A stretch of DNA of 64,000 nucleotides from Escherichia coli (GTDB lineage Bacteria > Pseudomonadota > Gammaproteobacteria > Enterobacterales > Enterobacteriaceae). The translations under genes and the position numbers were made by a program. Every line of letters starts with the position of its first letter. Position 1 is the stretch's first letter. The stretch lies in the NCBI RefSeq assembly GCF_024298765.1, contig NZ_CP101210.1; one strand, 5' to 3'. A model generated the notes under the pieces. The model had not been told where the DNA came from. It searched no databases and worked only from the letters and a program-made list of their open reading frames with translations. Positions 3,921 to 57,235 of the stretch are shown piece by piece.

Positions 3921-4361
3921 AGTAAGTACAAAACCTATTCGTTGTATGACAAATGTCACAATTCGATCATGGATAAATCGGGGCAAAAATGCAATGTTGC
4001 AGCACTATTTATCTCATATTATTTGAGGGTAATAACCTCACATTATCCCTGAATTAAAAGTGGTAATAATAAAACATTATTTAAGAAATATCGCATGTGG
4101 AGGCGCAATATTAAATATTGTCAACCTAAAGAAACTCCTAAAAACCATATTGAATGACACTTAATATAATTCTTAAAAATAGCCAATTGCCGAATTGTTA
4201 CCTTGCCTGCTATTCCGTTAGCTGTAACACTTCCTCCTGCATTATTGGAGAGCCAATATTCAATTACCATAATGTCACCTTATATTCGGAAGTTAATTTC
4301 CGCAATAACCCTTTCTCATCAACGATTGTATGCAGAGAGGGTTTGAAAAATTAAGCTAAAT

Positions 4362-4400
4362 CAGTGTATTGGTAGCTAAAAAGCCAGGGGCGGTAGCGTG
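4362..4400 (+). promoter_or_regulatory. JUMPstart element with ops (GGCGGTAGCGTG, 4389-4400) in colanic acid operon leader
   Basis: cagtgtattggtagctaaaaagccaggggcggtagcgtg about 180 bp upstream of wza; ops is the RfaH recruitment site. Confidence 0.85.
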
Positions 4401-4578
4401 TCTGGATGCCTGAAAGACCAGTCTGAATTATTCTGTCAATAGCCTGCGGATGAAATCAATTTTTTTAGGACTGATGCCAGTTAAATTTGTATTCAATTAA
4501 CTGCAAGGTAAATGTGCATGGCGACATTGCTATTAATAGTGCACAGGATAATTACTCTGCCAAAGTGATAAATAAACA

Positions 4579-5718
4579 ATGATGAAATCCAAAATGAAAT
4601 TGATGCCATTATTGGTGTCAGTAACCTTGATAAGCGGTTGCACAGTACTTCCGGGCAGCAATATGTCGACGATGGGCAAAGACGTCATCAAACAGCAGGA
4701 CGCTGATTTCGATCTCGACAAAATGGTGAATGTTTATCCGCTGACCCCGCGCCTGATTGACCAATTACGCCCACGCCCGAATGTAGCGCGCCCCAATATG
4801 ACGCTGGAAAGTGAGATCGCGAATTACCAGTATCGCGTCGGGCCGGGCGACGTTCTGAATGTCACCGTCTGGGATCACCCGGAACTCACCACGCCAGCCG
4901 GTCAGTACCGCAGCTCCAGCGACACCGGCAACTGGGTACAGCCTGACGGCACTATGTTTTACCCGTATATCGGCAAGGTCCACGTAGTCGGGAAAACGCT
5001 CGCTGAAATCCGCAGTGATATTACCGGGCGCTTAGCGACGTACATCGCTGACCCGCAGGTGGATGTTAATATCGCCGCCTTCCGCTCGCAAAAGGCCTAT
5101 ATCTCAGGTCAGGTGAATAAATCCGGTCAACAGGCGATCACCAACGTACCACTGACCATTCTCGACGCCATCAACGCCGCAGGTGGCCTGACCGACACCG
5201 CTGACTGGCGCAACGTGGTGCTAACACACAATGGTCGTGAAGAACGCATTTCTTTGCAGGCGCTGATGCAAAACGGCGACCTCAATCAGAACCGACTGCT
5301 TTACCCCGGCGATATTCTCTACGTGCCGCGTAATGATGATCTGAAAGTGTTTGTGATGGGTGAAGTGAAGAAACAGAGCACCCTGAAAATGGACTTTAGC
5401 GGCATGACCCTGACTGAAGCCCTGGGCAATGCCGAAGGTATCGACATGACCACCTCCAACGCCAGCGGCATCTTTGTCATTCGTCCGCTGAAAGGCGAGG
5501 GCGGGCGTAACGGCAAGATTGCCAATATCTACCAGCTGGATATGTCCGATGCCACGTCGCTGGTGATGGCGACAGAATTCCGCCTGCAACCTTATGACGT
5601 GGTGTATGTCACCACCGCCCCGGTTTCCCGCTGGAACCGTCTGATCAATCAGTTGCTGCCAACTATTAGCGGTGTCCGTTACATGACGGATACAGCCAGC
5701 GACATTCATAACTGGTAA
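4579..5718 (+). CDS. wza: Outer membrane polysaccharide export lipoprotein
   Basis: 379 aa, lipoprotein signal (LISGC); first gene of colanic acid cluster. Confidence 0.95.
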
Positions 5719-13508: not shown

Positions 13509-14630
13509 ATGTCAAAAGTCGCTCTCATCACCGGTGTAACCGGACAAGACGGTTCTTACCTGGCAGAGTTTCTGCTGGAAAAAGGTTACGAGGTGCATGG
13601 TATTAAGCGTCGTGCATCGTCATTCAACACCGAGCGCGTGGATCACATTTATCAGGATCCGCACACCTGCAACCCGAAATTCCATCTGCATTATGGCGAC
13701 CTGAGTGATACCTCCAACCTGACACGCATTTTGCGTGAAGTGCAGCCGGATGAAGTTTACAACCTGGGCGCAATGAGCCACGTTGCGGTTTCTTTTGAGT
13801 CACCGGAATATACCGCAGACGTCGATGCGATGGGTACGCTGCGCCTGCTCGAGGCGATCCGCTTCCTCGGTCTGGAAAAGAAAACCCGTTTCTATCAGGC
13901 TTCCACCTCTGAACTGTATGGTCTGGTGCAGGAAATTCCGCAGAAAGAAACCACGCCGTTCTACCCACGCTCTCCGTATGCTGTCGCCAAACTGTACGCC
14001 TACTGGATCACCGTTAACTACCGCGAATCCTACGGCATGTACGCCTGTAACGGTATTCTCTTCAACCATGAATCCCCGCGCCGCGGCGAAACCTTCGTTA
14101 CCCGCAAAATCACCCGCGCAATCGCCAATATCGCCCAGGGGCTGGAGTCGTGCCTGTACCTCGGCAATATGGATTCCCTGCGTGACTGGGGCCACGCCAA
14201 AGACTACGTAAAAATGCAGTGGATGATGCTGCAACAGGAACAGCCGGAAGATTTCGTTATCGCGACCGGCGTTCAGTACTCCGTGCGTCAGTTCGTGGAA
14301 ATGGCAGCGGCACAGCTGGGCATCAAACTGCGCTTTGAAGGCACGGGTGTTGAAGAGAAGGGCATTGTGGTTTCCGTCACCGGGCATGACGCGCCGGGCG
14401 TTAAACCGGGTGATGTGATTATCGCCGTTGATCCGCGTTACTTCCGTCCGGCTGAAGTTGAAACGCTGCTCGGCGACCCGACCAAAGCGCACGAAAAACT
14501 GGGCTGGAAACCGGAAATCACCCTCAGAGAGATGGTGTCTGAAATGGTGGCTAATGACCTCGAAGCGGCGAAAAAACACTCTCTGCTGAAATCTCACGGC
14601 TACGACGTGGCGATCGCGCTGGAGTCATAA
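13509..14630 (+). CDS. gmd: GDP-mannose 4,6-dehydratase (colanic acid copy)
   Basis: 373 aa; Rossmann [10 protein letters not shown]; SDR active-site region. Confidence 0.95.
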
Positions 14631-14632
14631 GC

Positions 14633-15598
14633 ATGAGTAAACAACGCATTTTTATCGCTGGCCATCGTGGGATGGTCGGTTCTGCCATCAGGCGGCAGCT
14701 CAAACAGCGCGGTGATGTGGAACTGGTATTACGCACCCGCGACGAGCTGAACCTGCTGGACAGCCGCGCGGTGCATGATTTCTTTGCCAGCGAACGCATT
14801 GACCAGGTCTATCTGGCGGCGGCGAAAGTGGGCGGCATTGTTGCCAACAACACCTATCCGGCGGATTTCATCTACCAGAACATGATGATTGAGAGCAACA
14901 TCATTCACGCCGCGCATCAGAACGACGTGAACAAACTGCTGTTTCTCGGATCGTCCTGTATCTACCCGAAACTGGCAAAACAGCCGATGGCAGAAAGCGA
15001 GTTATTGCAGGGCACGCTGGAGCCGACCAACGAGCCTTACGCCATTGCCAAAATCGCCGGGATCAAACTGTGCGAATCTTACAACCGCCAGTATGGACGC
15101 GATTACCGCTCAGTCATGCCGACCAACCTGTACGGGCCGCACGACAACTTCCACCCGAGTAACTCGCACGTGATCCCTGCATTGCTGCGTCGCTTCCACG
15201 AGGCGACGGCACAGAATGCGCCGGACGTGGTGGTGTGGGGCAGCGGTACACCGATGCGCGAATTTCTGCACGTTGATGATATGGCAGCGGCGAGCATTCA
15301 TGTGATGGAGCTGGCGCACGAAGTCTGGCAGGAGAACACCCGGCCGATGCTGTCGCACATTAACGTCGGCACGGGCGTTGACTGCACTATCCGTGAGCTG
15401 GCGCAAACCATCGCCAAAGTGGTGGGTTACAAAGGTCGGGTGGTTTTTGATGCCAGCAAACCGGATGGTACGCCGCGCAAACTGCTGGATGTGACGCGCC
15501 TGCATCAGCTTGGCTGGTATCACGAAATCTCACTGGAAGCGGGGCTTGCCAGCACTTACCTGTGGTTCCTTGAGAATCAAGACCGCTTTCGGGGGTAA
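14633..15598 (+). CDS. fcl: GDP-L-fucose synthase (colanic acid copy)
   Basis: 321 aa; N-terminal GHRGMVGSA; immediately after gmd. Confidence 0.95.
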
Positions 15599-16080
15599 TG
15601 ATGTTTTTACGTCAGGAAGACTTTGCCACGGTAGTGCGCTCCACCCCGCTTGTCTCCCTCGACTTTATTGTTGAGAACAGTCGCGGCGAGTTTCTGCTTG
15701 GCAAAAGAACCAACCGCCCGGCGCAGGGTTACTGGTTTGTGCCGGGAGGGCGCGTGCAGAAAGACGAAACGCTGGAAGCCGCATTTGAGCGGCTGACGAT
15801 GGCGGAACTGGGGCTGCGTCTGCCGATAACAGCAGGCCAGTTTTACGGTGTCTGGCAGCACTTTTATGACGATAACTTCTCCGGCACGGATTTCACCACT
15901 CACTATGTGGTGCTCGGTTTTCGCTTCAGAGTAGCGGAAGAAGAACTGTTACTGCCGGATGAGCAGCATGACGATTACCGCTGGCTGACGCCGGACGCAC
16001 TGCTCGCCAGTGACAATGTTCACGCTAACAGCCGCGCCTATTTTCTCGCTGAGAAGCGTGCCGGAGTACCCGGATTATGA
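15598..16080 (+). CDS. gmm: GDP-mannose mannosyl hydrolase (Nudix)
   Basis: 160 aa; synteny after fcl. Confidence 0.9.
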
Positions 16081-18845: not shown

Positions 18846-18931
18846 AATGCGAAACCGAGATGTAAATAACGACAAAAACAAAATTGGCCGTTTCGGTCAG
18901 GGCCAACTATTGCCTGAAAAAGGGTAACGAC

Positions 18932-20302
18932 ATGAAAAAATTAACCTGCTTTAAAGCCTATGATATTCGCGGGAAATTAGGCGAAGAACTGAATGAAGAT
19001 ATCGCCTGGCGCATTGGTCGCGCCTATGGCGAATTTCTCAAACCGAAAACCATTGTGTTAGGCGGTGATGTCCGTCTCACCAGCCAAACCTTAAAACTGG
19101 CGCTGGCAAAAGGTTTACAGGATGCGGGCGTTGACGTGCTGGATATTGGTATGTCCGGCACCGAAGAGATCTATTTCGCCACGTTCCATCTCGGCGTGGA
19201 TGGCGGCATTGAAGTTACCGCCAGCCATAATCCGATGGATTATAACGGCATGAAGCTGGTTCGCGAGGGGGCTCGCCCGATCAGCGGAGATACCGGACTG
19301 CGCGACGTCCAGCGTCTGGCTGAAGCCAACGACTTTCCTCCCGTCGATGAAACCAAACGCGGTCGCTATCAGCAAATCAACCTGCGTGACGCTTACGTTG
19401 ATCACCTGTTCGGTTATATCAATGTCAAAAACCTCACGCCGCTCAAGCTGGTGATTAACTCCGGGAATGGCGCAGCGGGTCCGGTGGTGGACGCCATTGA
19501 AGCCCGCTTTAAAGCCCTTGGCGCACCCGTGGAATTAATCAAAGTGCACAACACGCCGAACGGCAATTTCCCCAACGGTATTCCTAACCCGCTACTGCCG
19601 GAATGCCGCGACGACACCCGCAATGCGGTCATCAAACACGGCGCGGATATGGGCATTGCCTTTGATGGCGATTTTGACCGCTGCTTCCTGTTTGACGAAA
19701 AAGGGCAGTTTATCGAAGGCTACTACATTGTCGGCCTGCTGGCAGAAGCGTTCCTCGAAAAAAATCCCGGCGCGAAGATCATCCACGATCCACGTCTCTC
19801 CTGGAATACCGTTGATGTGGTGACTGCCGCTGGCGGCACGCCGGTGATGTCGAAAACCGGACACGCCTTTATTAAAGAACGTATGCGCAAGGAAGACGCC
19901 ATCTACGGTGGCGAAATGAGCGCCCACCATTACTTCCGTGATTTCGCTTACTGCGACAGCGGCATGATCCCGTGGCTGCTGGTCGCCGAACTGGTGTGCC
20001 TGAAAGATAAAACGCTGGGCGAACTGGTACGCGACCGGATGGCGGCGTTTCCGGCAAGCGGTGAGATCAACAGCAAACTGGCGCAACCCGTTGAGGCGAT
20101 TAACCGCGTGGAACAGCATTTTAGCCGTGAGGCGCTGGCGGTGGATCGCACCGATGGCATCAGCATGACCTTTGCCGACTGGCGCTTTAACCTGCGCACC
20201 TCCAATACCGAACCGGTGGTGCGCCTGAATGTGGAATCGCGCGGTGATGTGCCGCTGATGGAAGCGCGAACGCGAACTCTGCTGACGTTGCTGAACGAGT
20301 AA
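18932..20302 (+). CDS. cpsG: Phosphomannomutase (colanic acid copy)
   Basis: Start taken at [14 protein letters not shown] (456 aa), not the track start 18884; phosphohexomutase fold with TASHNP. Confidence 0.95.
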
Positions 20303-23329: not shown

Positions 23330-23535
23330 CGACAACGGTTGCCGGATGCGGCGTAAAACGCCTTATCCATCCTACGGTTCCGTGCTCGGGACCTGTAGGC
23401 CTGATAAGACGCGTCAGCGTCGCATCAGGCACTGAATGCCGGATGCGGCGTGAACGCCTTATCCGGCCTACGGTTCTGTGCTCGGGTCTTGTAGGCCTGA
23501 TAAGACGCGTCAGCGTCGCATCAGGCAAAAAGCGG
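23330..23535. repeat. BIME: about four REP palindromic units in alternating orientation, with an internal ~96-bp tandem duplication
   Basis: Alternating GCCGGATGCGGCGT(A/G)AACGCCTTATCC and GGCCTGATAAGACGCGTCAGCGTCGCATCAGGC units; the long track ORF 23314-24867 reads through them artefactually. Confidence 0.8.
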
Positions 23536-28884: not shown

Positions 28885-29778
28885 ATGACGAATTTAAAAG
28901 CAGTTATACCGGTAGCAGGTCTTGGGATGCATATGTTGCCTGCCACTAAGGCGATTCCCAAAGAGATGCTACCGATCGTCGACAAGCCAATGATTCAGTA
29001 CATTGTTGACGAGATTGTGGCTGCAGGGATCAAAGAAATCCTCCTGGTAACTCATGCGTCCAAGAACGCGGTCGAAAACCACTTCGACACCTCTTATGAA
29101 TTAGAATCTCTCCTTGAACAGCGCGTGAAGCGTCAGCTGCTGGCGGAAGTGCAGTCCATCTGTCCGCCTGGCGTGACCATTATGAACGTGCGTCAGGGTG
29201 AACCTTTAGGTTTGGGCCACTCCATTTTATGTGCACGACCCGCCATTGGTGACAACCCATTTGTCGTGGTGCTGCCAGACGTTGTGATCGATGACGCCAG
29301 CGCCGACCCGCTGCGCTACAACCTTGCTGCCATGATTGCGCGCTTCAACGAAACGGGCCGCAGCCAGGTGCTGGCAAAACGTATGCCGGGTGACCTCTCT
29401 GAATACTCCGTCATTCAGACCAAAGAACCGCTGGACCGTGAAGGCAAAGTCAGCCGCATTGTTGAATTTATCGAAAAACCGGATCAGCCGCAGACGCTGG
29501 ACTCAGACATCATGGCCGTAGGTCGTTATGTGCTTTCTGCTGATATTTGGCCGGAACTGGAACGTACTCAGCCTGGTGCATGGGGGCGTATTCAGCTTAC
29601 TGATGCTATTGCCGAACTGGCGAAAAAACAGTCCGTTGATGCCATGCTGATGACTGGAGACAGCTACGACTGCGGTAAAAAAATGGGCTATATGCAGGCG
29701 TTTGTGAAGTATGGGCTGCGCAACCTGAAAGAAGGGGCGAAGTTCCGCAAAGGTATTGAGAAGGTGTTAAGTGAATAA
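28885..29778 (+). CDS. galF: UTP-glucose-1-phosphate uridylyltransferase paralogue (GalU-like regulatory subunit)
   Basis: 297 aa; nucleotidyltransferase motif [25 protein letters not shown]. Confidence 0.95.
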
Positions 29779-30011
29779 AAATTGATCATCCATATATGGT
29801 GGATTGAATAAAAATAGAACTGCAGTGAACATTCAAAAGAAAAGATGATTACGTTATAAGAATGTTCCTGTCTTTTATTGAAAGTATTTAATAACAATAA
29901 GTTACAGCATGTATCGCTCGTACATAGATTTTCCTTGTATTTGACTTCGTTTGATTAGACTATTGGAAAATAGTGAAAAGTATTAAATAATTAGTACCTA
30001 TGATTCATTTT

Positions 30012-30050
30012 CAGTGAGTTGGTAACTGTTAAGCCAAGGGCGGTAGCGTG
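30012..30050 (+). promoter_or_regulatory. JUMPstart element with ops (GGCGGTAGCGTG, 30039-30050) in O-antigen operon leader
   Basis: cagtgagttggtaactgttaagccaagggcggtagcgtg; same 39-bp architecture as the wza leader copy. Confidence 0.85.
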
Positions 30051-30085
30051 TGTTTTGATCCTACCCACGTAATATGGACACAGGC

Positions 30086-30841
30086 CTAAGCGAGGTTCTG
30101 GTTTTCAAATTGTTCCGGACTGAGGCCGCCACACCAACTGTGCCGCCGCCACCGATTGTAATCACATTCGATATAATTAAACACCGTTGCCCGCATTATT
30201 TCCCGGCTGATAAAGTGTTCTCCATGGATACATTCCACTTTCAGCGAATGAAAGAAGCTTTCCACGCAGGCATTATCGTAGCAGCAACCTTTTGCGCTCA
30301 TACTTCCACGCAGATTATGCCGCTTCAGTTGCGCCGTCATGCGTGGCGACATTGACCAGCCAATAACGGCACGTGACCACAGGTCAATGACCACTGCCAG
30401 ATACAGCCAGCCTTCATCTGTACGTAAGTACGTGATGTCTCCTGCCCACTTCTGGTTCGGGCCACTGGCGTAAAAATCCTGCTCCAACAGATTTTCTGAC
30501 ACAGGCAGGCCGTGTGCGCGGTAGCTGACCGGGCTGAACTTCCGGGAGGCCTTTGCCCTCAGTCCCTGACGGCGCAGGCTTGCCGCCACGGTTTTTACGT
30601 TAAAGGGGTAACCCTGAGCACGCAGTTCATCCGTCAGGCGTGGGGCACCGTAACGCTGTTTTGACCGGGTAAAAGCCGCGAGGACAACGCTGTCGCAGTG
30701 TTGGCGGAACTGCTGACGCGTGCTTATCCTTGTCCGCCGCTGACACCACGTATACCAGCCGCTGCGGGCCACCCGGAGCACGCGGCACATTGCTTTGATG
30801 CTGAACTCAGCCTGATGTTTTTCAATAAAGACATACTTCAT
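30086..30841 (-). pseudogene. insF: IS3 OrfB transposase catalytic domain, apparently truncated by in-frame internal deletion (251 aa versus recalled 288 aa)
   Basis: [19 protein letters not shown]...; junction PRMTAQL|KRHNLRG at about 30326/30327; recalled intact OrfB has about 37 extra residues here including HTDRGGQY. Confidence 0.7.
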
Positions 30842-31146
30842 TTCAGGCGCTTCGCGAAGTATGTCGCGGCCTTTTGGAGGATAGCCAGCTCTTCATCCCG
30901 TTCTGCCAGCTGGCGTTTGAGACGTGCAATCTCGGTAGACATCTCCAGTTCACGTTCAGAAGACGTCTGCTGATTTTGCTGTTTACTGCGCCAGTTGTAG
31001 AGCTGTGATTCATACAGGCTGAGTTCACGGGCTGCGGCAGTAACACCGATGCGTTCAGCAAGCTTCAGGGCTTCACTGCGAAATTCAGGCGAATGCTGTT
31101 TACGGGGTTTTTTACTGGTTGATACTGTTTTTGTCATGTGAGTCAC
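30838..31146 (-). CDS. insE: IS3 OrfA (transposase N-terminal HTH protein)
   Basis: 102-aa ORF ...[50 protein letters not shown]...; leucine-zipper-like C-terminus. Confidence 0.9.
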
Positions 31147-31237
31147 CTCTGACTGAGAGTTTACTCACTTAGCCGCGTGTCCACTATTGCTGGGTAAGAT
31201 CATTTTTCTCTCAATCCTCATGATAAAGGAGGTTTAT

Positions 31238-32257
31238 ATGGTGATTTTCGTAACAGGCGGTGCAGGATATATTGGATCCCATACCATACTTGAGTTACTT
31301 AATAATGGTCATGATGCCGTTTCGATAGATAATTTTGCCAATTCCTCTATAGAATCATTAAAAAGAGTAGAGCAAATAACTAATAAGAAAATTATTTCTT
31401 ATCAAGGTGATATCCGTGATAAAAATCTACTTGATGAGATTTTTTCAAGACATCATATCGATGCTGTAATTCATTTTGCATCGTTAAAATCTGTAGGTGA
31501 GTCAAAGTTAAAGCCCTTAGAGTATTATTCTAATAATGTTGGTGGAACTTTAGTATTACTTGAATGCATGAAGAGATATAACATTAATAAAATGATATTT
31601 AGCTCTTCTGCTACTGTTTATGGGAATAACAGTATCCCTCCCCATACGGAAGATAGACGAATTGGTGAAACTACAAACCCATATGGGACATCGAAGTTTA
31701 TAATAGAAATGATTTTGAGTGATTATTGTGATAGCGATAATAATAAATCAGTAATTGCACTACGTTATTTTAATCCAATCGGAGCACATAAGTCCGGGAT
31801 GATTGGTGAAAATCCTAACGGGATTCCTAATAATCTGGTTCCTTATATATCTAAAGTTGCACAAAATCAACTTCCTGTATTAAATATTTATGGCAACGAT
31901 TATCCAACTAAAGATGGTACAGGAGTAAGAGACTATATACATGTCTGTGATTTGGCTAAAGGGCATGTTAAAGCATTAGAATATATGTTTTTAAATGATG
32001 TCAATTATGAGGCTTTTAATTTAGGTACTGGTCAAGGTTATTCTGTTTTAGAGATTGTAAAAATGTTTGAGATAGTCACTAAAAAGAGTATACCTTTTGC
32101 TATTTGTAATAGACGTGAGGGGGATGTTGCTGAGTCATGGGCGTCTGCTGATTTGGCACATGAAAAGCTTTCCTGGAAAGCGGAAAAAAAATTGAAAGAA
32201 ATGATCGAAGATGTATGGCGTTGGCAAACAAAAAATCCAAATGGATATAAAAAATAA
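31238..32257 (+). CDS. UDP-hexose 4-epimerase (GalE/Gne family), first O-antigen gene
   Basis: Start at ATG 31238 with AGGAGG RBS (track ORF begins 31187, overlapping the IS end); 339 aa; TGGAGYIGSHT Rossmann, NPYGTSK, YxxxK; AT-rich. Confidence 0.85.
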   Translation: MVIFVTGGAGYIGSHTILELLNNGHDAVSIDNFANSSIESLKRVEQITNKKIISYQGDIRDKNLLDEIFSRHHIDAVIHFASLKSVGESKLKPLEYYSNNVGGTLVLLECMKRYNINKMIFSSSATVYGNNSIPPHTEDRRIGETTNPYGTSKFIIEMILSDYCDSDNNKSVIALRYFNPIGAHKSGMIGENPNGIPNNLVPYISKVAQNQLPVLNIYGNDYPTKDGTGVRDYIHVCDLAKGHVKALEYMFLNDVNYEAFNLGTGQGYSVLEIVKMFEIVTKKSIPFAICNRREGDVAESWASADLAHEKLSWKAEKKLKEMIEDVWRWQTKNPNGYKK

Positions 32258-32275
32258 TTTTTGGAATTTTGATAT

Positions 32276-33292
32276 ATGAAAAATGTTGGTTTTATTGTTA
32301 CAAAATCAGAAATTGGTGGTGCACAAACATGGGTAAATGAAATATCTAACCTTATTAAAGAGGAATGTAATATATTTCTTATTACATCTGAAGAAGGATG
32401 GCTCACACATAAAGATGTCTTTGCTGGAGTTTTTGTCATACCAGGTATTAAAAAATATTTTGACTTCCTTACATTGTTTAAATTGAGAAAAATTTTAAAA
32501 GAAAATAATATTTCAACATTAATAGCAAGTTCTGCTAATGCCGGAGTTTATGCTAGGTTAGTTCGATTACTAGTCGACTTTAAATGTATTTATGTTTCGC
32601 ATGGATGGTCTTGTTTATATAATGGTGGTCGACTAAAATCAATTTTTTGTATTGTGGAGAAATACCTTTCTTTATTAACTGATGTTATATGGTGTGTTTC
32701 CAAAAGTGATGAAAAAAAAGCAATTGAGAAAATTGGTATAAAAGAAACAAAGATAATCACAGTATCGAATTCAGTGCCTCAGATGCCAAGATGTAATAAT
32801 AAACCACTCCAGTATAAAGTTCTGTTTGTTGGTAGGTTAACACACCCTAAGCGCCCCGAATTGTTAGCGAATGTAATATCGAAAAAGCCCCAGTATAGCC
32901 TCCATGTCGTAGGAGGGGGGGAAAGGTTAGAATCATTGAAGAAACAATTCAGTGAATGTGAAAATATTCATTTTATGGGTGAGGTCAATAATTTTTATAA
33001 CTATCATGAGTATGATTTATTTTCACTGATATCCGATAGTGAAGGTTTGCCTATGTCAGGCCTTGAGGCTCACACAGCTGCAATACCACTCCTTTTAAGT
33101 GATGTGGGCGGATGTTTTGAATTAATTGAGGGTAATGGGGTACTTGTGGAAAATACTGAAGACGACATTGGATATAAATTGGATAAAATATTCGATGACT
33201 ATGAAAATTATCGGGAACAGGCAATTCGTGCCTCCGGAAAATTTGTTATCGAGAACTATGCTTCAGCATATAAAAGCATTATTTTAGGTTGA
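32276..33292 (+). CDS. Glycosyltransferase, GT4 family (retaining, GT-B)
   Basis: 338 aa; EX7E-type motif SEGLPMSGLEAHTAAIPLL; AT-rich. Confidence 0.75.
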   Translation: MKNVGFIVTKSEIGGAQTWVNEISNLIKEECNIFLITSEEGWLTHKDVFAGVFVIPGIKKYFDFLTLFKLRKILKENNISTLIASSANAGVYARLVRLLVDFKCIYVSHGWSCLYNGGRLKSIFCIVEKYLSLLTDVIWCVSKSDEKKAIEKIGIKETKIITVSNSVPQMPRCNNKPLQYKVLFVGRLTHPKRPELLANVISKKPQYSLHVVGGGERLESLKKQFSECENIHFMGEVNNFYNYHEYDLFSLISDSEGLPMSGLEAHTAAIPLLLSDVGGCFELIEGNGVLVENTEDDIGYKLDKIFDDYENYREQAIRASGKFVIENYASAYKSIILG

Positions 33293-33318
33293 GTATTTTT
33301 TAGAACAGGAAATGTAAA

Positions 33319-34440
33319 ATGGCTAAAGTCGCTCTCATTACTGGCATAACCGGACAAGACGGTTCTTACCTGGCAGAGTTTCTGCTGGAAAAAGGTTACG
33401 AGGTGCATGGTATTAAGCGTCGTGCATCGTCATTCAACACCGAGCGCGTGGATCACATTTATCAGGATCCGCACACCTGCAACCCGAAATTCCATCTGCA
33501 TTATGGCGACCTGAGTGATACCTCCAACCTGACGCGCATTTTGTGTGAAGTGCAGCCGGATGAAGTGTACAACCTTGGCGCAATGAGTCACGTTGCGGTC
33601 TCTTTTGAGTCACCGGAATATACCGCAGACGTTGATGCGATGGGTACGCTGCGCCTGCTCGAGGCGATCCGCTTCCTCGGTCTGGAAAAGAAAACCCGTT
33701 TCTATCAGGCTTCCACTTCTGAACTGTACGGTCTGGTGCAGGAGATTCCGCAGAAAGAGACCACGCCGTTCTACCCACGCTCTCCGTATGCAGTCGCCAA
33801 ACTGTACGCCTACTGGATCACCGTTAACTACCGCGAATCCTACGGCATGTACGCCTGTAACGGTATTCTCTTTAACCATGAATCCCCGCGCCGCGGCGAA
33901 ACCTTCGTTACCCGCAAAATCACCCGCGCAATCGCCAACATCGCACAGGGGCTGGAGTCGTGCCTGTACCTCGGCAATATGGATTCCCTGCGTGACTGGG
34001 GCCACGCCAAAGACTACGTAAAAATGCAGTGGATGATGCTGCAACAGGAACAGCCGGAAGATTTCGTCATCGCTACCGGCGTTCAGTATTCCGTGCGTCA
34101 GTTCGTGGAAATGGCGGCAGAGCGAGTCGGAATCAAACTGCGTTTTGAAGGCGCAGGTGTAGATGAGAAAGGGATAGTGGTTTCTGTTAATGGTGAGGAT
34201 GCTCCAGCAGTTAAACCTGGAGATGTAATCGTTAAGGTTGACCCGCGTTACTTCCGTCCGGCTGAAGTTGAAACACTGCTCGGCGACCCGACCAAAGCGC
34301 ACGAAAAACTGGGCTGGAAACCGGAAATCACCCTCAGAGAGATGGTGTCTGAAATGGTGGCTAATGACCTCGAAGCGGCGAAAAAACACTCTCTGCTGAA
34401 ATCTCACGGCTACGACGTGGCGATCGCGCTGGAGTCATAA
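33319..34440 (+). CDS. gmd: GDP-mannose 4,6-dehydratase (O-antigen copy)
   Basis: 373 aa; near-identical to colanic acid gmd apart from a divergent patch at about 34110-34255. Confidence 0.95.
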
Positions 34441-34442
34441 GC

Positions 34443-35408
34443 ATGAGTAAACAACGCATTTTTATCGCTGGCCATCGTGGGATGGTCGGTTCTGCCATCA
34501 GGCGGCAGCTCAAACAGCGCGGTGATGTGGAACTGGTATTACGCACCCGCGACGAGCTGAACCTGCTGGACAGCCGCGCGGTGCATGATTTCTTTGCCAG
34601 CGAACGCATTGACCAGGTCTATCTGGCGGCGGCGAAAGTGGGCGGCATTGTTGCCAACAACACCTATCCGGCGGATTTCATCTACCAGAACATGATGATT
34701 GAGAGCAACATCATTCACGCCGCGCATCAGAACGACGTGAACAAACTGCTGTTTCTCGGATCGTCCTGTATCTACCCGAAACTGGCAAAACAGCCGATGG
34801 CAGAAAGCGAGTTATTGCAGGGCACGCTGGAGCCGACCAACGAGCCTTACGCCATTGCCAAAATCGCCGGGATCAAACTGTGCGAATCTTACAACCGCCA
34901 GTATGGACGCGATTACCGCTCAGTCATGCCGACCAACCTGTACGGGCCGCACGACAACTTCCACCCGAGTAACTCGCACGTGATCCCTGCATTGCTGCGT
35001 CGCTTCCACGAGGCGACGGCACAGAATGCGCCGGACGTGGTGGTGTGGGGCAGCGGTACACCGATGCGCGAATTTCTGCACGTTGATGATATGGCAGCGG
35101 CGAGCATTCATGTGATGGAGCTGGCGCACGAAGTCTGGCAGGAGAACACCCGGCCGATGCTGTCGCACATTAACGTCGGCACGGGCGTTGACTGCACTAT
35201 CCGTGAGCTGGCGCAAACCATCGCCAAAGTGGTGGGTTACAAAGGTCGGGTGGTTTTTGATGCCAGCAAACCGGATGGTACGCCGCGCAAACTGCTGGAT
35301 GTGACGCGCCTGCATCAGCTTGGCTGGTATCACGAAATCTCACTGGAAGCGGGGCTTGCCAGCACTTACCTGTGGTTCCTTGAGAATCAAGACCGCTTTC
35401 GGGGGTAA
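34443..35408 (+). CDS. fcl: GDP-L-fucose synthase (O-antigen copy)
   Basis: 321 aa; nucleotide-identical to colanic acid fcl across the whole gene by line-by-line comparison. Confidence 0.95.
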
Positions 35409-35911
35409 TGATGTTTTTACGTCAGGAAGACTTTGCCACGGTAGTGCGCTCCACCCCGCTTGTCTCCCTCGACTTTATTGTTGAGAACAGTCGCGGCGAG
35501 TTTCTGCTTGGCAAAAGAACCAACCGCCCGGCGCAGGGTTACTGGTTTGTGCCGGGAGGGCGCGTGCAGAAAGACGAAACGCTGGAAGCCGCATTTGAGC
35601 GGCTGACGCTTGCGGAACTGGGGTTGCGTCTGCCGATAACAGCAGGCCAGTTTTACGGTGTCTGGCAGCACTTTTATGACGATAACTTCTCCGGCTCGGA
35701 TTTCACCACTCACTATGTGGTGCTCGGTTTTCGCATCAGAGTAGCGGAAGAAAAGCTGTTACTGCCGGATGAGCAGCATGACGATTACCGCTGGCTGACG
35801 CCGGACGCGTTGCTCGCCAGTGACAATGTTCACGCTAACAGCCGAGCTTATTTTAATCATGATCCAAGAGCTGTTATTGGTTTAGATAAAAAGGATGTCA
35901 AAAATGTCTGA
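35408..35911 (+). CDS. gmm: GDP-mannose mannosyl hydrolase (O-antigen copy, divergent C-terminus)
   Basis: 167 aa; first ~145 aa near-identical to colanic gmm, then diverges after ...NSRAYF; 3' end overlaps manC. Confidence 0.85.
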
Positions 35912-37352
35912 TGTACCGTTGATTGCTGTTGTAATGGCTGGTGGTACGGGTAGCCGTCTTTGGCCCCTCTCAAGAGAGCACTATCCGAAGCAATTTCTGC
36001 AATTATCAGGTGAGAATACTTTATTACAGTCAACCTTATTACGACTATCCCCGCTTTCTTGCGAAACTCCATTAGTAATAACAAATGAGCAACATCGCTT
36101 TGTGGTTGCAGAACAATTACGTCAAATTGATCAGTTAAGAGATAATATTATTCTTGAGCCATGTGGAAGAAATACGGCTCCCGCCATAGCTCTTTCAGCA
36201 TTTACAGCTTTGAAGCGTAATGAACAACAGGATCCTATTTTGTTGATTCTCGCAGCTGACCATATTATAAGCAAAGCGGATGTTTTTTGTGACGCTATTC
36301 AAAAATCGAAAACTGTAGCTGAACAGGGGAATATTGTAACCTTTGGGATTATACCTGAATATGCGGAAACAGGTTATGGTTATATAAAAAAAGGAGATCC
36401 TTTTAAAATTTTACCAAATATTACTGATGATAAGTTTTATCATGTCCAACAATTTATTGAAAAACCTAACCATTCGACGGCAGAAGAGTATGTTTCCACA
36501 GGAGAATATCTCTGGAATAGTGGAATGTTTATGTTTAAAGCATCAGTATATTTAGAGGAATTGAAAAAGCACAGGCCTGATATATACGAAATCTGTGAGC
36601 AGACAGCTTCATTATCCTATAACGATCTTGATTTCATACGATTGCCTAAACATATTTTCCAAGATTGTCCGTCGGAATCAATTGATTTTGCGGTTATGGA
36701 AAAAACAAAAAATTGCATTGTTCGTCCAGTAGACATCGGGTGGAGTGATGTAGGCTCTTGGCATTCTTTGTGGGATATTAGTGATAAAACGCAGGATGGA
36801 GATGTCTGTAAAGGTGATATTCTAACTTATAACACTAAAAACAATTATATATATTGTGAATCAGCCCTAGTGGCTGCTGTAGGTGTAGAAGATATAGTTA
36901 TTGTTCAAACAAAAGATGCTATTCTCGTGTCCAAAAAAACTGAGGTTCAGGATGTAAAAAAAATAGTAGAAATGCTTAAGGAACATGAGCGCTCAGAGTA
37001 TATATCGCATCGAGAGGAGTTTCGGCCTTGGGGAAAATTTGATGCGATAGATCAGGGAGAACGATATAAAGTTAAAAAGATAGTTGTGAAACCCGGCGAA
37101 GGACTATCCTTACGAATGCACCATCATCGTTCTGAGCATTGGATTGTTCTTTCCGGCACAGCAAAAGTAACTTTAAACGATAAAACAGTATTGCTTGCTG
37201 CAAATGAATCAATCTACATTCCTCTAGGAGCAACGTATAGTCTTGAAAATCCAGGAATAATCCCTCTGAATCTTATTGAGGTTAGTTCAGGCGATTATTT
37301 AGGTGAGGATGATATTGTACGGCAAAAAGAACGCTACAGAATAGATGACTAA
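35895..37352 (+). CDS. manC: Mannose-1-phosphate guanylyltransferase (O-antigen copy, divergent and AT-rich)
   Basis: 485 aa; [12 protein letters not shown] nucleotidyltransferase motif; clearly diverged from cpsB in protein and composition. Confidence 0.9.
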
Positions 37353-37355
37353 TAT

Positions 37356-38735
37356 ATGAAAAAATTAACCTGCTTTAAAGCCTATGATATTCGCGGGAAA
37401 TTAGGTGAAGAACTGAATGAAGATATCGCCTGGCGCATTGGTCGCGCCTATGGCGAATTTCTCAAACCGAAAACCATTGTGTTAGGCGGTGATGTCCGCC
37501 TCACCAGCGAAACCTTAAAACTGGCGCTGGCAAAAGGTTTGCAGGATGCGGGCGTCGATGTGCTGGATATTGGTATGTCCGGCACCGAAGAGATCTATTT
37601 CGCCACGTTCCATCTCGGCGTGGATGGCGGCATTGAAGTTACCGCCAGTCATAATCCGATGGATTACAACGGCATGAAACTGGTGCGCGAAGGGGCTCGC
37701 CCGATCAGCGGCGATACCGGACTGCGCGATGTCCAGCGTCTGGCAGAAGCCAACGACTTTCCTCCCGTTGATGAAACCAAACGCGGTCGCTATCAGCAAA
37801 TCAACCTGCGTGACGCTTACGTTGATCACCTGTTCGGTTATATCAGTGTCAAAAACCTTACGCCGCTCAAGCTGGTGATTAACTCCGGGAACGGCGCGGC
37901 GGGTCCGGTGGTGGACGCCATTGAAGCCCGCTTTAAAGCCCTCGGCGCACCGGTGGAATTAATCAAAGTACACAACACGCCGGACGGCAATTTCCCCAAC
38001 GGTATTCCTAACCCGTTGCTGCCGGAATGCCGCGACGACACCCGTCATGCGGTCATCAAACACGGCGCGGATATGGGCATTGCCTTTGATGGCGATTTTG
38101 ACCGCTGTTTCCTGTTTGACGAAAAAGGGCAGTTTATCGAGGGCTACTACATTGTCGGCTTGCTGGCACAAGCGTTCCTCGAAAAAAATCCCGGCGCGAA
38201 GATCATCCACGATCCACGTCTCTCCTGGAACACCGTTGATGTGGTGACTGCCGCAGGCGGCACCCCGGTAATGTCGAAAACCGGACACGCCTTTATTAAA
38301 GAACGGATGCGCAAGGAAGACGCCATCTACGGTGGCGAAATGAGCGCCCACCATTACTTCCGTGATTTTGCTTACTGCGACAGCGGCATGATCCCGTGGC
38401 TGCTGGTCGCCGAACTGGTGTGTCTGAAAGGAAAAACGCTGGGCGAACTGGTGCGCGACCGGATGGCAGCATTTCCGGCAAGCGGTGAGATCAACAGCAA
38501 ACTGGCGGACCCCGTTGAGGCGATTAACCGCGTGGAACAGCATTTTAGCCGTGAGGCGCTGGCGGTGGATCGCACCGATGGCATCAGTATGACCTTTGCC
38601 GACTGGCGCTTTAACCTGCGCTCCTCCAACACCGAACCGGTGGTGCGCCTGAATGTGGAATCGCGCGGTAATATAGCATTAATGAATGAACAGGTTGAAT
38701 TTATTACAAAATTTTTAAACGGTGATGGTTTATGA
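37356..38735 (+). CDS. manB: Phosphomannomutase (O-antigen copy)
   Basis: 459 aa; near-identical to cpsG in the stretches compared except the last ~20 codons. Confidence 0.95.
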
Positions 38736-39289
38736 GAATATTAAAAATTATTATAAGTGTATTGTTGTTTATAAAAAAGAAAAGAAAAAAAATACCGGAC
38801 TCAGCAATAATAAACTTAACAAGTCATGTGGATAAACATTCAGTAATTGGAAAGTGTTGTTATATAGGGAAAAATGTATATATAACTAAAAGTATCATTG
38901 GGAATTACACATCTATTGCAAATAATGTCTCAATTGGTCAAGGTGAACATAAGGTTGATGCAGTTAGTACAAGTTCGATGTTCTACGATAATGAATTCGA
39001 AGATTTAACACAAAACGATTGTATTATAGGTAATGATGTGTGGCTCGGTACAGGAGTTACTGTATTACGAGGGGTAAGAATTGGTGATGGTGCTATTATT
39101 GGTGCTAATGCCGTTGTCACAAAAAATATTCCAGATTATTGTATTGCGGTAGGAGTACCTGCGAAAGTAATCAAAAGAAGATTACCAGTAAATGTTACTG
39201 AAAAAATAAAAGAGACTAAATGGTGGAATGATGAATATGAAGTGGCGAAGGATAAAATTATTTGCTTAACAAATGAATTAAAGTTATGA
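38732..39289 (+). CDS. O-acetyltransferase, hexapeptide-repeat (LbH) family
   Basis: 185 aa; repeats such as [31 protein letters not shown]; 4-bp overlap with manB; AT-rich. Confidence 0.75.
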
Positions 39290-40728
39290 ACAAAAAAGAA
39301 ATAATTATCTTGCTTATAGCCAGAATTCTACAGATTCTCATTAGTTTATTCACAATGAGATTGATGACAACGATTTTAAGCAATGAGCAAATGGGGGAGT
39401 ATTATATTTTTTTAGCAATCTATATGTTGGCATCATTGGGTATAATTAATCCAATAGGACAATATGTGAATCGCAACACTTATTTATGGTGGAGAGAGGG
39501 AGTACTAACCCAATATATTGATCGATATATTAATTTTGTTTTGTGTTTTTCGCTTATTTATGTGATTTTGTATGGACTTGGTGAATGTTTGTTTAAAGGA
39601 ATAAATACACCATTTTGGATGTTATTCTGTTATTTATATATAGTATGTTTATCTCTAAACCAATTTCTATTACATACTTTAAATATCTTAAATTTTAAGA
39701 TAGTATTTTCCATTATGACGTTGATGACTTCTGTATTAAGTTTATCAGGGGCATATTTATTTATTGAATATAGCATAGCTAAACAAACTGTTAGTATATA
39801 TTACTGGGTTGCAGGAATCATAATTGGCAATTTTATTTCTTTATGTATATGCGTTGTATATCTGAGATGTAGAAATACGTTCCAAAAATCAATTCCTAAA
39901 TCTATCAATGTAAGCATAAAAGAAGTTTTTAATTTTTGCTGTCCAATTATGATAACAACTTTGTTCATTTGGTTTCAAAGCTCTGGATATCGATTTGCTG
40001 TCGAGCAAATGTTTGGCTTAAAGTTTTTAGGTATACTAGCTGTATGTTTTGCTGTGTCAGGGCAAATAATGTCAGTGATTGAGTCTTTAGTGACACAGAT
40101 ATTTCAACCAACATTATTTAAGCATATGGATAATGTCAAAAATAGAAAGCAACATCTAGATTTTTATATTAATGAAAATATAGCAATTTATGCTAGTGTA
40201 TTATTTTTTTGTACTTTCTTTATGCGCGAAATATTTTTGGTTTTAGTTGACAATAAATATCTTCCTTACTTCTATATAGGTATAATAGCTTTATGGAGTG
40301 AATTTTTTAGGATATCAACCAATACTTTGTCTTTAGTGTTTTTTTGCGAAAAGAAAATGAAGGTGGGAATTTTTCCTTATTTAATTGGCTCATTAAGTCT
40401 GGCTTTTTCGATCGTCTTGTTCAGGTTGTTAAATGTAAATTTGGGTATTTTAATAGCTTTTGCTATTGGGATTGCACAATTGGCCTCCTTTATCGTTTGC
40501 TTAATTACGGTAAAAAAAATCTCTTATTTTAAAATAAATTCCATCTTCTTAATGAAGAGGATAATAATAGTACTACCTTCTGTGTTAATTGCCCATTGCA
40601 TTCCTAAATTTGAAATGATTAATGCTGTCCATTTTATTATCATTTTCGGTGTCGGTTTATTTTACTTAATCTCTTTAGTTACTTCTTTTATGTTTATTAA
40701 ACAACCAGGAGGTGTTTATGGAAGTTAA
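39286..40728 (+). CDS. wzx: O-antigen flippase (Wzx-like polytopic membrane protein)
   Basis: 480 aa, very hydrophobic with about 12 predicted TM segments; position in O-antigen cluster. Confidence 0.7.
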   Translation: MNKKEIIILLIARILQILISLFTMRLMTTILSNEQMGEYYIFLAIYMLASLGIINPIGQYVNRNTYLWWREGVLTQYIDRYINFVLCFSLIYVILYGLGECLFKGINTPFWMLFCYLYIVCLSLNQFLLHTLNILNFKIVFSIMTLMTSVLSLSGAYLFIEYSIAKQTVSIYYWVAGIIIGNFISLCICVVYLRCRNTFQKSIPKSINVSIKEVFNFCCPIMITTLFIWFQSSGYRFAVEQMFGLKFLGILAVCFAVSGQIMSVIESLVTQIFQPTLFKHMDNVKNRKQHLDFYINENIAIYASVLFFCTFFMREIFLVLVDNKYLPYFYIGIIALWSEFFRISTNTLSLVFFCEKKMKVGIFPYLIGSLSLAFSIVLFRLLNVNLGILIAFAIGIAQLASFIVCLITVKKISYFKINSIFLMKRIIIVLPSVLIAHCIPKFEMINAVHFIIIFGVGLFYLISLVTSFMFIKQPGGVYGS

Positions 40729-41569
40729 AATTATTGGGGGACTTGGCAATCAGATGTTTCAGTATGCAACTGCATTTGCTATTGCAAAAAGAACTCATCA
40801 AAATTTGACTGTTGATATATCTGATGCAGTAAAATATAAAACTCATCCATTAAGATTAGTTGAATTATCTTGTAGTTCAGAATTTGTAAAAAAAGCATGG
40901 CCATTTGAAAAATACTTATTTTCCGAAAAAATCCCACATTTCATGAAAAAAGAAATGTTCAGAAAGCATTACGTTGAGAAAAGTTTAGAGTATGATCCAG
41001 ATATTGATACTAAAAGTATAAATAAAAAAATCGTCGGTTATTTTCAAACTGAAAAATATTTTAAGGAATTTAGGCATGAGTTGATAAAGGAATTTCAACC
41101 TAAAACTAAGTTTAATAGTTATCAAAATGAATTGCTTAATTTAATTAAAGAAAATGATACTTGTTCATTGCATATTAGAAGAGGTGATTATGTTTCCAGT
41201 AAAATAGCAAATGAAACTCATGGTACATGTAGTGAAAAATATTTTGAACGTGCCATTGATTATTTGATGAATAAAGGTGTTATTAATAACAAAACCCTTC
41301 TCTTCATTTTTTCTGATGATATAAAGTGGTGCAGGGAAAATATATTTTTTAATAATCAAATATGTTTTGTTCAAGGTGATGCTTATCATGTTGAATTAGA
41401 TATGTTGCTTATGAGTAAATGTAAAAATAATATAATTTCAAATAGTTCTTTCAGTTGGTGGGCTGCTTGGTTAAATGAAAATAAAAATAAAACAGTAATT
41501 GCTCCGAGTAAATGGTTTAAGAAAGATATTAAACATGATATTATTCCCGAATCGTGGGTAAAATTATGA
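40718..41569 (+). CDS. Alpha-1,2-fucosyltransferase (GT11 family)
   Basis: Start at ATG 40718 with AGGAGG RBS; GT11 signature HIRRGDYV; N-terminal GGLGNQMFQYA; co-located with GDP-fucose genes. Confidence 0.8.
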   Translation: MEVKIIGGLGNQMFQYATAFAIAKRTHQNLTVDISDAVKYKTHPLRLVELSCSSEFVKKAWPFEKYLFSEKIPHFMKKEMFRKHYVEKSLEYDPDIDTKSINKKIVGYFQTEKYFKEFRHELIKEFQPKTKFNSYQNELLNLIKENDTCSLHIRRGDYVSSKIANETHGTCSEKYFERAIDYLMNKGVINNKTLLFIFSDDIKWCRENIFFNNQICFVQGDAYHVELDMLLMSKCKNNIISNSSFSWWAAWLNENKNKTVIAPSKWFKKDIKHDIIPESWVKL

Positions 41570-42432
41570 TGGAAGATACAAAAGAATTAATAACAGTAAT
41601 AATGCCTGTTTATAATGCGGAAAAATACATATATGAATCTATAAAAAGTATTTTGGTGCAGTCATATTCTAATTTTGAGTTCATCATTATTAATGATGGC
41701 TCAAAAGATTCTTCTGGAAAAATTATTGAAAACTTTCTCGATGATACGAGGATACGATATATAAATCGTGAAAATAAAGGTTTGGTCTTCACTCTGAATG
41801 AAGCTATTTCGTTATCAAGAGGAAATTATATTGCTCGAATGGATGCTGATGATATTTCACATCCCCTACGATTAGAAAAGCAACTAAATTTTCTACTAGA
41901 AAATCCAGATATAGCCGTAGTTGGGTGTTCTTCTTTTATTATTGACCAAAATTCTAAGGTTATAAATACGCGAAAACCACCTTTGACACCTTTAGTAAAT
42001 AAAGCATTGCTATTTTTTGGCCCAACATTAACTCATCCATCAGTGATGTTTAATAAAATACTACTTGGAGATCAGCTTTACTACAGTGATAAATATCTTC
42101 ATGTTGAAGATTATGACTTGTGGTTGAGGTTAATTAATCAATACAAAATAGCTAATATCAAAGATGTTCTTTTTTACTATCGAATTAATGAGTCAGGTGT
42201 TTCACAGACTAATTTATTTGAACAAAAAATTAATGCTGCTAAAGCATATAGTGAAATTAAATATGATGGTAAGTATAAAGACTTACTGGAAAAGTTAGAA
42301 GTCATACACCTGAGACATGAAATGGAGAAAAGTAAGGTCTTTCAGGCCGTATTATATATATTATTAAAGTATGAACATGATTCATTATTATTTTTAAAAT
42401 TAGGATATATATTACGATGGTTAATAAAATAA
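41554..42432 (+). CDS. Glycosyltransferase, GT2 family
   Basis: 292 aa; VIMPVYNAEKYI...IIINDGSKDSS and ARMDADD (DXD-type) motifs. Confidence 0.8.
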   Translation: MGKIMMEDTKELITVIMPVYNAEKYIYESIKSILVQSYSNFEFIIINDGSKDSSGKIIENFLDDTRIRYINRENKGLVFTLNEAISLSRGNYIARMDADDISHPLRLEKQLNFLLENPDIAVVGCSSFIIDQNSKVINTRKPPLTPLVNKALLFFGPTLTHPSVMFNKILLGDQLYYSDKYLHVEDYDLWLRLINQYKIANIKDVLFYYRINESGVSQTNLFEQKINAAKAYSEIKYDGKYKDLLEKLEVIHLRHEMEKSKVFQAVLYILLKYEHDSLLFLKLGYILRWLIK

Positions 42433-43316
42433 AAATAGCACTAATAAGTACAGAAAAAGCTAATCTTCCTGAAATTGAAGCCTATAAGGAGTATTTTTCG
42501 GAGCCATTTGATGTCTCTGTTGTTAATAAAAATGATGATTTAAGTTGTTATGATGTTTTATGGTACTTTATGGGGTTTAAAGGTAATAAAATAAACTCTA
42601 AACAGTTCTTGATTCATGAGTTTTCCTCAATTTCAGTACCACCATTTCCAAAAATAAAAAACGTTATCAAGAAATTTATTTTGCCTAAACCTAATTTGAG
42701 GGTTTTTTTAAATAAATCAGTGCAACAACAATTCGATTTTAATGATAGAGTTCCTTTTTGTTACCGAGATATGGGCGTCAATTATAAACCAGTAGTTGAA
42801 AGAAATAATAAAAAATATGATATATTATATGTGGGGGCAATTACTGGTAGAAAACTAGATGATGCATTAAATTTGATTTTGTCATATAAATTAGATTGTA
42901 AAATCGCAATTCTTGGTAAAGTGCCAGAAAAGTTCAAAGAAAAATATAAAAATACTGATGTTATATTTCTTGGGCAAGTTCCTTATAATCGGGTAGCCAC
43001 CATTATTGCAGAATCTAACTTGTGTTTAAATTGGATTCCGAATATTTATCCATATAACATGCAGACATCAACAAAATTCTTAGAGTATCTGGCACAAAAT
43101 AAACAAATAATATCGAATAGCTACCCTTGGGTTGACTCTTATTGTCAACAGCATAATATTGACTATATTAATGTCAATGATTCCAATTCTATTCGACAAG
43201 CATTGAACTCAGTCATAATCCAAAAATCAACACATATCCCCCCAAGTTGGCGAGAGGTTATTATGAATAGCGGGATAGAGAATCACATTAAATCATATTT
43301 TGAGGTAACAAAATGA
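42417..43316 (+). CDS. Putative glycosyltransferase (family not recognisable from motifs)
   Basis: 299 aa, AT-rich, 16-bp overlap with upstream GT2 gene; C-terminal region loosely resembles a GT-B C-terminal domain. Confidence 0.5.
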   Translation: MVNKIKIALISTEKANLPEIEAYKEYFSEPFDVSVVNKNDDLSCYDVLWYFMGFKGNKINSKQFLIHEFSSISVPPFPKIKNVIKKFILPKPNLRVFLNKSVQQQFDFNDRVPFCYRDMGVNYKPVVERNNKKYDILYVGAITGRKLDDALNLILSYKLDCKIAILGKVPEKFKEKYKNTDVIFLGQVPYNRVATIIAESNLCLNWIPNIYPYNMQTSTKFLEYLAQNKQIISNSYPWVDSYCQQHNIDYINVNDSNSIRQALNSVIIQKSTHIPPSWREVIMNSGIENHIKSYFEVTK

Positions 43317-44356: not shown

Positions 44357-44837
44357 TAAGCTTCCCTCAGTTGTTTGTTGTATAGTAATATTTTAATATC
44401 ATTGCAGTGTGTAATTATTGTCAATAAGCTAATTTCTGTTATTTGCATGATTAATTCAGTTTGCAATGCTTGATGTAAAAAGATAAAGTGCACCCGTTTA
44501 CACAATGTTTATTTTGGCATGTCAAGTATAAGTTCTAAATAATACGTTTGTAATGTTTAGCATGTAAACATAATAGTTAAATAATATTAAACATGCAACA
44601 TGCCATTTGTTATTCTAATAAAACATATGTGTTGTGTGAATTATTTAATGTGGAAAGTGGTTGCGTATTATAAATTGTTCATATTGACGTTTAAGTCTTT
44701 TATAACTCCATGCTTGCATGTTAAAAACATTTCGCTATATATTCGCTATATATTATGGTAGGTGGTTTTTATCTAGGCAGATTTGTCTATTTAACTCTAA
44801 ATCTAAATCGCTTAAGAAAGTATGAGTAGGAGTATTT

Positions 44838-57084: not shown

Positions 57085-57120
57085 AATAAAAAAGCCCCCG
57101 GAAGGTGATCTTCCGGGGGC
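57085..57120 (-). terminator. his attenuator terminator hairpin
   Basis: GCCCCCGGAAG...CTTCCGGGGGC stem followed on the minus strand by a T-run; lies between hisL and hisG. Confidence 0.85.
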
Positions 57121-57184
57121 TTTCTCATGCGTTCATGTACCACTGGAAGATCTGAATGTCTTCCAGCACACATCGCCTGAAAGA

Positions 57185-57235
57185 CTAGTCAGGATGATGG
57201 TGATGATGGTGGTGTTTAAATTGAACGCGTGTCAT
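57185..57235 (-). CDS. hisL: his operon leader peptide (7 consecutive His codons)
   Basis: Minus-strand ORF ATG ACA CGC GTT CAA TTT AAA CAC CAC CAT CAT CAC CAT CAT CCT GAC TAG = MTRVQFKHHHHHHHPD. Confidence 0.95.
   Translation of the reverse strand: MTRVQFKHHHHHHHPD

Follow-up and report, generated by a model that had tools for sequence, protein, structure and literature searches.

Are both polysaccharide operons on this stretch of Escherichia coli DNA preceded by a site of the type that recruits RfaH, and is the second of these sites still joined to its genes, given that an insertion sequence, IS3, now lies between them? The question arises from a sequence-only reading of the window (the whole stretch of 64,000 nucleotides analysed here), in which two near-identical 39-bp JUMPstart/ops elements were held to place both operons under RfaH-type antitermination, the colanic-acid copy being intact and the O-antigen copy being cut off by IS3. 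The JUMPstart element is said to go back to Hobbs and Reeves 1994. The window is from E. coli and its ORFs are colinear with those annotated in the RefSeq record of LHM10-1; the gene order is dcd, asmA and yegH, followed by wza-wcaM, gne and galF (28885-29778), the O128 cluster, galE, gnd, ugd and wzzB, and the his operon. The two elements and their surroundings are:

4362-4400, + strand: JUMPstart copy 1, in the leader of the colanic-acid operon (wza-wcaM), CAGTGTATTGGTAGCTAAAAAGCCAGGGGCGGTAGCGTG; Rfam RF01707, 57.3 bits
4389-4400, + strand: ops copy 1, 12 nt, GGCGGTAGCGTG; exact consensus match
4401-4578, + strand: rest of the wza 5′ leader, 178 nt, between ops and the wza ATG
4579-27489, + strand: colanic-acid operon wza-wzb-wzc-wcaA...wcaM, presumed target of ops copy 1; ORFs colinear with the LHM10-1 RefSeq annotation
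29779-30011, + strand: intergenic region from galF to JUMPstart, AT-rich, presumed O-antigen promoter region (pattern match)
30012-30050, + strand: JUMPstart copy 2, in the leader of the O128 O-antigen operon, CAGTGAGTTGGTAACTGTTAAGCCAAGGGCGGTAGCGTG; Rfam RF01707, 52.5 bits
30039-30050, + strand: ops copy 2, 12 nt, GGCGGTAGCGTG; exact consensus match, intact
31238-44356, + strand: O128 O-antigen genes; ORF lengths match the LHM10-1 annotation

Our main reading, to which we assign a probability of about 80%, is that the window carries two JUMPstart/ops RfaH sites of the functional type and that the second would still be in cis with the O-antigen operon. The identity of the elements themselves, both 39-mers being JUMPstart elements with ops as their 3′ 12 nt, is almost certain. 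In pairwise alignment, the two 39-mers agree at 32 of 39 positions (82%) and their 12-nt ops are identical, with agreement at 19 of the last 20 bases at the 3′ end; the earlier coordinates and family assignment are thus upheld, and only the wording “near-identical” is slightly generous. The ops consensus, tested as the 12-nt GGCGGTAGnnTG on the non-template (coding) strand, is matched by an exact GGCGGTAGCGTG at both sites, and formal comparison, which the sequence-only reading had named as the point at which it could fail, went in its favour for both ops and JUMPstart. The exact ops GGCGGTAGNNTG occurs twice in the 64 kb, against 0.12 occurrences expected from shuffles, and both occurrences (4389-4400 and 30039-30050, the only ones in the window) have the + orientation of the operons. 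The matches to RF01707 have E-values of 1.6e-10 (4362-4400) and 3.8e-9 (30012-30050), exceed the gathering score of 35 bits, and cover the covariance model of length 38 in full (positions 1-38 of 38, untruncated). Furthermore, both ops sites are intergenic and outside any long ORF, share their strand with a long polysaccharide operon, and are placed 178 nt 5′ of wza and, natively, 37 nt 5′ of galE. One-mismatch matches to ops at 3802, 17063, 26419, and 52312 occur at chance frequency, in or antisense to genes, and were dismissed.

The 40-nt flanks of the two elements agree at 10 of 40 and 9 of 40 positions, which is the chance level; hence, the similarity is limited to the 39 bp and does not reflect a segmental duplication. 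The notion that the likeness of the 39-mers is accidental, or the relic of a duplication, without function, can draw on the AT-rich intergenic DNA around both elements and on nothing more, and in view of the unrelated flanks, the low E-values, the excess of exact ops, and the occurrence of the same element in the leaders of many genera, it deserves practically no credence. An 18-mer, GCCARGGGCGGTAGCGTG, was found at at least 120 loci in Enterobacterales and Aeromonas (one genome per species), and the matches listed include Escherichia, Citrobacter, Enterobacter, Pantoea, Serratia, Erwinia, Yersinia, Aeromonas, and others, often with two to four copies per genome. Among the matches listed, the spacing between ops and the following ORF (of at least 120 codons) was measured at 81 loci outside long ORFs: the median is 178 nt, equal to the 178 nt in the wza leader, the interquartile range spans 84-224 nt, and the longest spacing is 1016 nt. 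Both copies share with JUMPstart (RF01707) the 39-bp pattern CAGTG...TGGTA(G/A)C...AAGCCA(G/A)GGGCGGTAGCGTG on the coding strand upstream of a polysaccharide cluster; copy 1 has no difference from the known element, whereas copy 2 now lies 1187 nt, rather than 37 nt, from the first gene.

Rfam models a 5-bp stem in this family, and both copies can pair UUGGU with GCCAG or GCCAA, which is suggestive of a role of the JUMPstart 5′ half mainly as structured RNA (stem UGGU...GCCA), instead of or besides the ops as non-template DNA. At the outer pair of the Rfam stem, the change between the window copies, U.G versus U-A, is a compatible one, and in 60 strict full-length matches this pair is T-A in 26, C-G in 17, T.G in 16, and G.G in one, and C-A in none; the covariation count is nevertheless weak because the pattern used had a fixed 3′ arm and the sequences are related. 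However, folding of the 39-mers and of their 101-nt contexts was no better than that of dinucleotide shuffles (z of -0.03, +0.72, -1.26, and -0.07), the minimum-energy folds are devoid of the Rfam stem, and the published RfaH mechanism requires only the ops DNA, the essential part acting as non-template DNA (PMC7819879). The absence of folding support for a stable RNA in these tests agrees with this published non-template role, and a mainly RNA-based function is considered improbable. As DNA, ops can form a marginal 3-bp hairpin (-0.9 kcal/mol), which is compatible with the published non-template hairpin and constitutes no evidence for it.

The colanic-acid copy is intact, as the sequence-only reading had it. 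The wza leader (4184-4589) has 99% identity to its CFT073 counterpart and 100% to that of other E. coli; of 5426 complete E. coli genomes, 4818 contain it. CFT073 carries exactly the same 39-mer in its wza leader, and the start of ops copy 1 lies 190 nt before the wza ATG (4389 to 4579), as in CFT073. No Shine-Dalgarno sequence is recognisable before the wza ATG (GTGATAAATAAACAATG, 4558-4584), in agreement with the reported absence of Shine-Dalgarno sequences in RfaH targets. Promoters at both leaders were represented by weak consensus matches only, and the presumed promoter region at 29779-30011 contains a single consensus-like promoter, TTGGAA-17-AATAAT at 29963-29991, by pattern match only. 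A search for the RcsAB box, the consensus of which we take to be TAAGAATATTCCTA, with up to three mismatches yielded no match upstream of wza; its five matches in the window, against 4.75 expected, are at the chance level. The best of them, TAAGAATGTTCCTG at 29857-29870 (+), lies between galF and the O-antigen JUMPstart, has two mismatches, and is not significant.

The claim that RfaH-type elements stand ahead of both operons gains support from binding data on the orthologous ops sites. In CFT073, RfaH ChIP-seq signal was reported at eight leader sites, including those of wzx (O-antigen) and wza (Hustmyer et al., 2022; PMC9765446); the wza signal was obtained in Δhns ΔstpA, in which the promoter is de-silenced, and the wza site has an upstream sigma-70 peak. 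The supplementary table of the same study places GGCGGTAGCGTG 190 nt before wza and, in the wzx leader, 67 nt after the transcription-unit start and 71 nt before the gene. The 12-nt ops is identical at both loci of the two strains, and the order of galF, JUMPstart, and O-antigen genes is also the same. By contrast, CFT073 carries O6 rather than O128, the 39-mers of the rfb leaders show six differences, none of them within ops, the CFT073 O-antigen leader has 71 nt from ops to the first gene with no IS, and it is in CFT073 that RfaH binding was measured. The colanic-acid operon has also been described as using a “JUMPStart-RfaH antitermination mechanism” (PMC9976346, 2023, citing Stout, 1996 and Hobbs and Reeves, 1994). 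Judged from these likenesses in sequence, dependence of both operons on RfaH is highly probable; the window does not include rfaH. As a separate observation, the CFT073 RefSeq record (2423638-2424776) lists wza as a pseudogene with a frameshift, yet the ops leader of this gene is RfaH ChIP-positive.

The presence of JUMPstart/ops ahead of both operons is established knowledge, and there is nothing new in the elements. The result mainly confirms a correct annotation; in E. coli, JUMPstart/ops has long served as a landmark before wza and before the O-antigen genes, and PCR primers for O-antigen clusters are even placed on it (PMC4384082). According to published work, RfaH does not leave RNA polymerase before termination and excludes NusG, so that Rho-dependent termination is limited (PMC7819879). 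Applied to the window, RNA polymerase transcribing either leader would pause at ops, where the exposed non-template GGCGGTAGCGTG would recruit RfaH with displacement of NusG, and RfaH would then accompany the polymerase through the whole operon, limiting Rho-dependent termination and aiding ribosome recruitment. Copy 1 would serve the Rcs-inducible colanic-acid operon wza-wcaM, and copy 2 would serve the O128 O-antigen operon.

The second leader is the one that carries the insertion, with the following parts:

30053-30055, no strand: target-site duplication TTT, left copy, from alignment with the IS-free allele
30056-31202, - strand: IS3, 1147 bp, from alignment with IS-free EcPF16 and with LHM10-1
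30086-30841, - strand: IS3 orfB (HTH_21 and rve)
30838-31137, - strand: IS3 orfA (HTH_Tnp_1)
31203-31205, no strand: target-site duplication TTT, right copy of the same 3-bp duplication

The layout reads ...GGCGGTAGCGTG TG TTT [ TGATCCTACCC...GGGTAAGATCA ] TTT TTCTCTCAATCC...AAGGAGGTTTATATG(galE), with the element between the square brackets. IS3 starts 5 bp 3′ of ops in the orientation opposite to the operon, with its right inverted repeat toward ops and its left inverted repeat toward galE, and the gap between ops and galE is extended from 37 nt in the IS-free allele to 1187 nt. Assignment to the IS3 family is based on aligned terminal inverted repeats (starting with TGATC), the 3-bp duplication, and orfA and orfB with HTH and DDE (rve) domains; RefSeq labels an insertion at the same site “IS3-like element IS3 family transposase.” Compared with the full-length IS3 in LHM10-1 and CP52E, the window copy lacks 111 bp after 30325 (at 30325/30326, in frame, within orfB), a deletion flanked by 10-bp direct repeats, CAGTTGCGCC. 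Profile positions 52-100 of rve, half of the catalytic core, are lost through this deletion, leaving positions 2-51 of 102, against 2-100 in the LHM10-1 copy, and the window IS3 is thus very probably unable to transpose on its own. No second copy with the 111-bp deletion was present among the best matches listed from complete E. coli genomes; in the search with the deletion junction, the best matches listed were split over 191 bp, which corresponds to full-length IS3. No literature precedent was found for an IS between JUMPstart and the first gene or directly behind ops. An ISKpn26 near galF-galE in one match was considered as a second leader insertion and rejected, as this IS lies inside a glycosyltransferase gene.

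Does IS3 cut the O-antigen copy off, as the sequence-only reading proposed? The insertion is real and lies between ops and galE. Nevertheless, comparison with the IS-free allele shows no change in ops, in the 6 nt downstream of it (TGTTTT), or in the intergenic DNA upstream, and the 39-mer of copy 2 is identical to that in the IS-free O128 strain EcPF16. On the strand transcribed with the operon (+), neither a consensus scan nor a scan of every T-run revealed an intrinsic terminator within IS3, and no terminator-like site was found on either strand of the element. The wording “cut off” is therefore unsupported, since ops is not a promoter-proximal operator that must adjoin its gene. On these alignments, IS3 is best described as lengthening the O-antigen leader rather than as demonstrably disconnecting ops copy 2.

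It is conceivable that the O-antigen genes have lost their functional link to ops and the promoter through IS3, in which case the strain would be rough or O-antigen-poor and the second JUMPstart would be an orphan. IS3 places 1147 nt of foreign, untranslated RNA between ops and galE, and its antisense transcript at 30134-30445 is C-rich and G-poor (C/G 1.3-1.9); untranslated RNA of this composition is preferred by Rho, and substantial polarity would thus be possible even with RfaH. The 1187-nt leader also exceeds the maximum of 1016 nt in the 81 natural ops leaders sampled among the matches listed. Furthermore, no promoter-like site facing galE was found on the + strand of IS3, so that expression must come from read-through. 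Insertion of an IS is a common route to capsule or O-antigen loss (PMC12077207), although the insertions described there are inside genes. The IS3 allele at the O128 leader is rare, occurring in two of 5426 complete genomes, in agreement with a mildly deleterious or a recent insertion. Some polarity from IS3 is plausible.

By contrast, RfaH stays with the polymerase past ops and counters Rho and NusG, no intrinsic terminator interrupts the path, and action from a distance has a known example: the hly ops in CFT073 lies 634 nt before hlyC in a 5′ UTR of 768 nt (PMC9765446). The hlyCABD leader is comparable in that its ops is far from the first gene and RfaH acts at a distance, as would be needed for the IS3 allele; it differs in being native sequence, whereas the O128 leader here is mostly antisense IS3 and approximately twice as long (1187 nt). 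In the O62 reference strain, IS1 lies inside the O-antigen cluster, and the strain serotypes positive (PMC4384082), which indicates that such an insertion is compatible with O-antigen expression. As here, an RfaH-type operon is concerned and the downstream genes are retained; the difference is that IS1 is situated between genes of the cluster (rmlA and rmlC), whereas IS3 is in the leader directly after ops. All 13 O-antigen ORFs in the window, in the order galE, a glycosyltransferase gene (GT), gmd, fcl, gmm, manC, manB, acetyltransferase, wzx, fucosyltransferase, two GTs, and wzy, are intact with the lengths annotated in LHM10-1, where wzx (flippase) and wzy (polymerase) carry the annotation “O128 family.” Every downstream ORF being intact speaks against disconnection, but the LHM10-1 cassette differs by only ~0.1%, and these intact genes consequently carry little statistical power. 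The first gene, galE (31238), has a strong Shine-Dalgarno sequence, AAGGAGG, 5 nt before its ATG (31212-31243); galE would therefore not need RfaH for ribosome recruitment.

The distribution of the cassette also bears on this point. The galF-wzzB block (~28.5-50 kb, IS3 included) is 99.85-100% identical to LHM10-1, whereas the flanks are 94.9-98.8% identical on the colanic-acid side and 95.8-98% identical on the his side. Because the block is near-identical while its flanks diverge, the IS3-bearing O128 cassette must be present in at least two chromosomal backgrounds, and the three isolates that carry it (from a pig in China, from a human in Thailand, and the source of this window) argue against a disconnection of the O-antigen genes. 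The O128 cassette looks to have been exchanged by recombination, with breakpoints that would lie near gne/galF and wzzB/hisI.

Taken together, the now transposase-defective IS3 would have turned a 37-nt gap into an untranslated leader of 1187 nt with ops kept in the transcription unit, and an RfaH-modified polymerase would presumably read through the antisense strand of IS3, so that the O-antigen genes would be expressed, probably at a reduced level. We consider the chance that read-through gives at least partial O-antigen expression to be slightly better than even, and a leader that is longer and partly polar, with RfaH as a buffer, seems somewhat more probable than silencing, the rough or O-antigen-poor outcome being possible and rather doubtful. 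The stronger proposal, in which the RfaH-modified polymerase makes this 1.15-kb antisense leader IS largely non-polar, operons with ops are buffered against such insertions, and the strain is smooth O128, is put forward tentatively, at a little under even odds.

IS3 directly behind ops is a small natural curiosity and no new kind of system. If O128 is still made, the IS3 allele offers a natural test of the distance over which RfaH can suppress Rho-dependent polarity in foreign DNA that is not translated. Should O128 no longer be made, the allele adds to the ways in which a strain becomes rough, and genotyping of O128 from wzx/wzy would predict the wrong phenotype.

Several further features of the window were recorded. 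The GDP-fucose genes gmd-fcl-gmm are present in duplicate, at 13509-16044 in the colanic-acid operon and at 33319-35854 in the O128 cluster, with 97.1% identity, as is most of the phosphomannomutase gene (18932-20245 and 37356-38669, 96.3% identity). These long direct repeats, ~20 kb apart, could give rise to deletion or gene conversion. A galE gene lies at either end of the O128 cluster (31238-32257 and 44838-45857); the two have only ~66% DNA identity, and a non-coding gap of 481 bp (44357-44837) separates wzy from the second galE. Rfam matches above the gathering score were additionally obtained at four places:

18878-18927, + strand: algC RNA motif, just before cpsG
23398-23468, - strand: naRNA4 (REP-type element), between wzxC and wcaK
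57086-57209, - strand: His leader
59948-60022, + strand: sRNA STnc240, after yeeY

Finally, the asmA-yegH intergenic region (~2064-2336), from asmA to the 3′ end of yegH, is ~178 bp shorter than in LHM10-1, a length difference that probably represents a REP-type indel.
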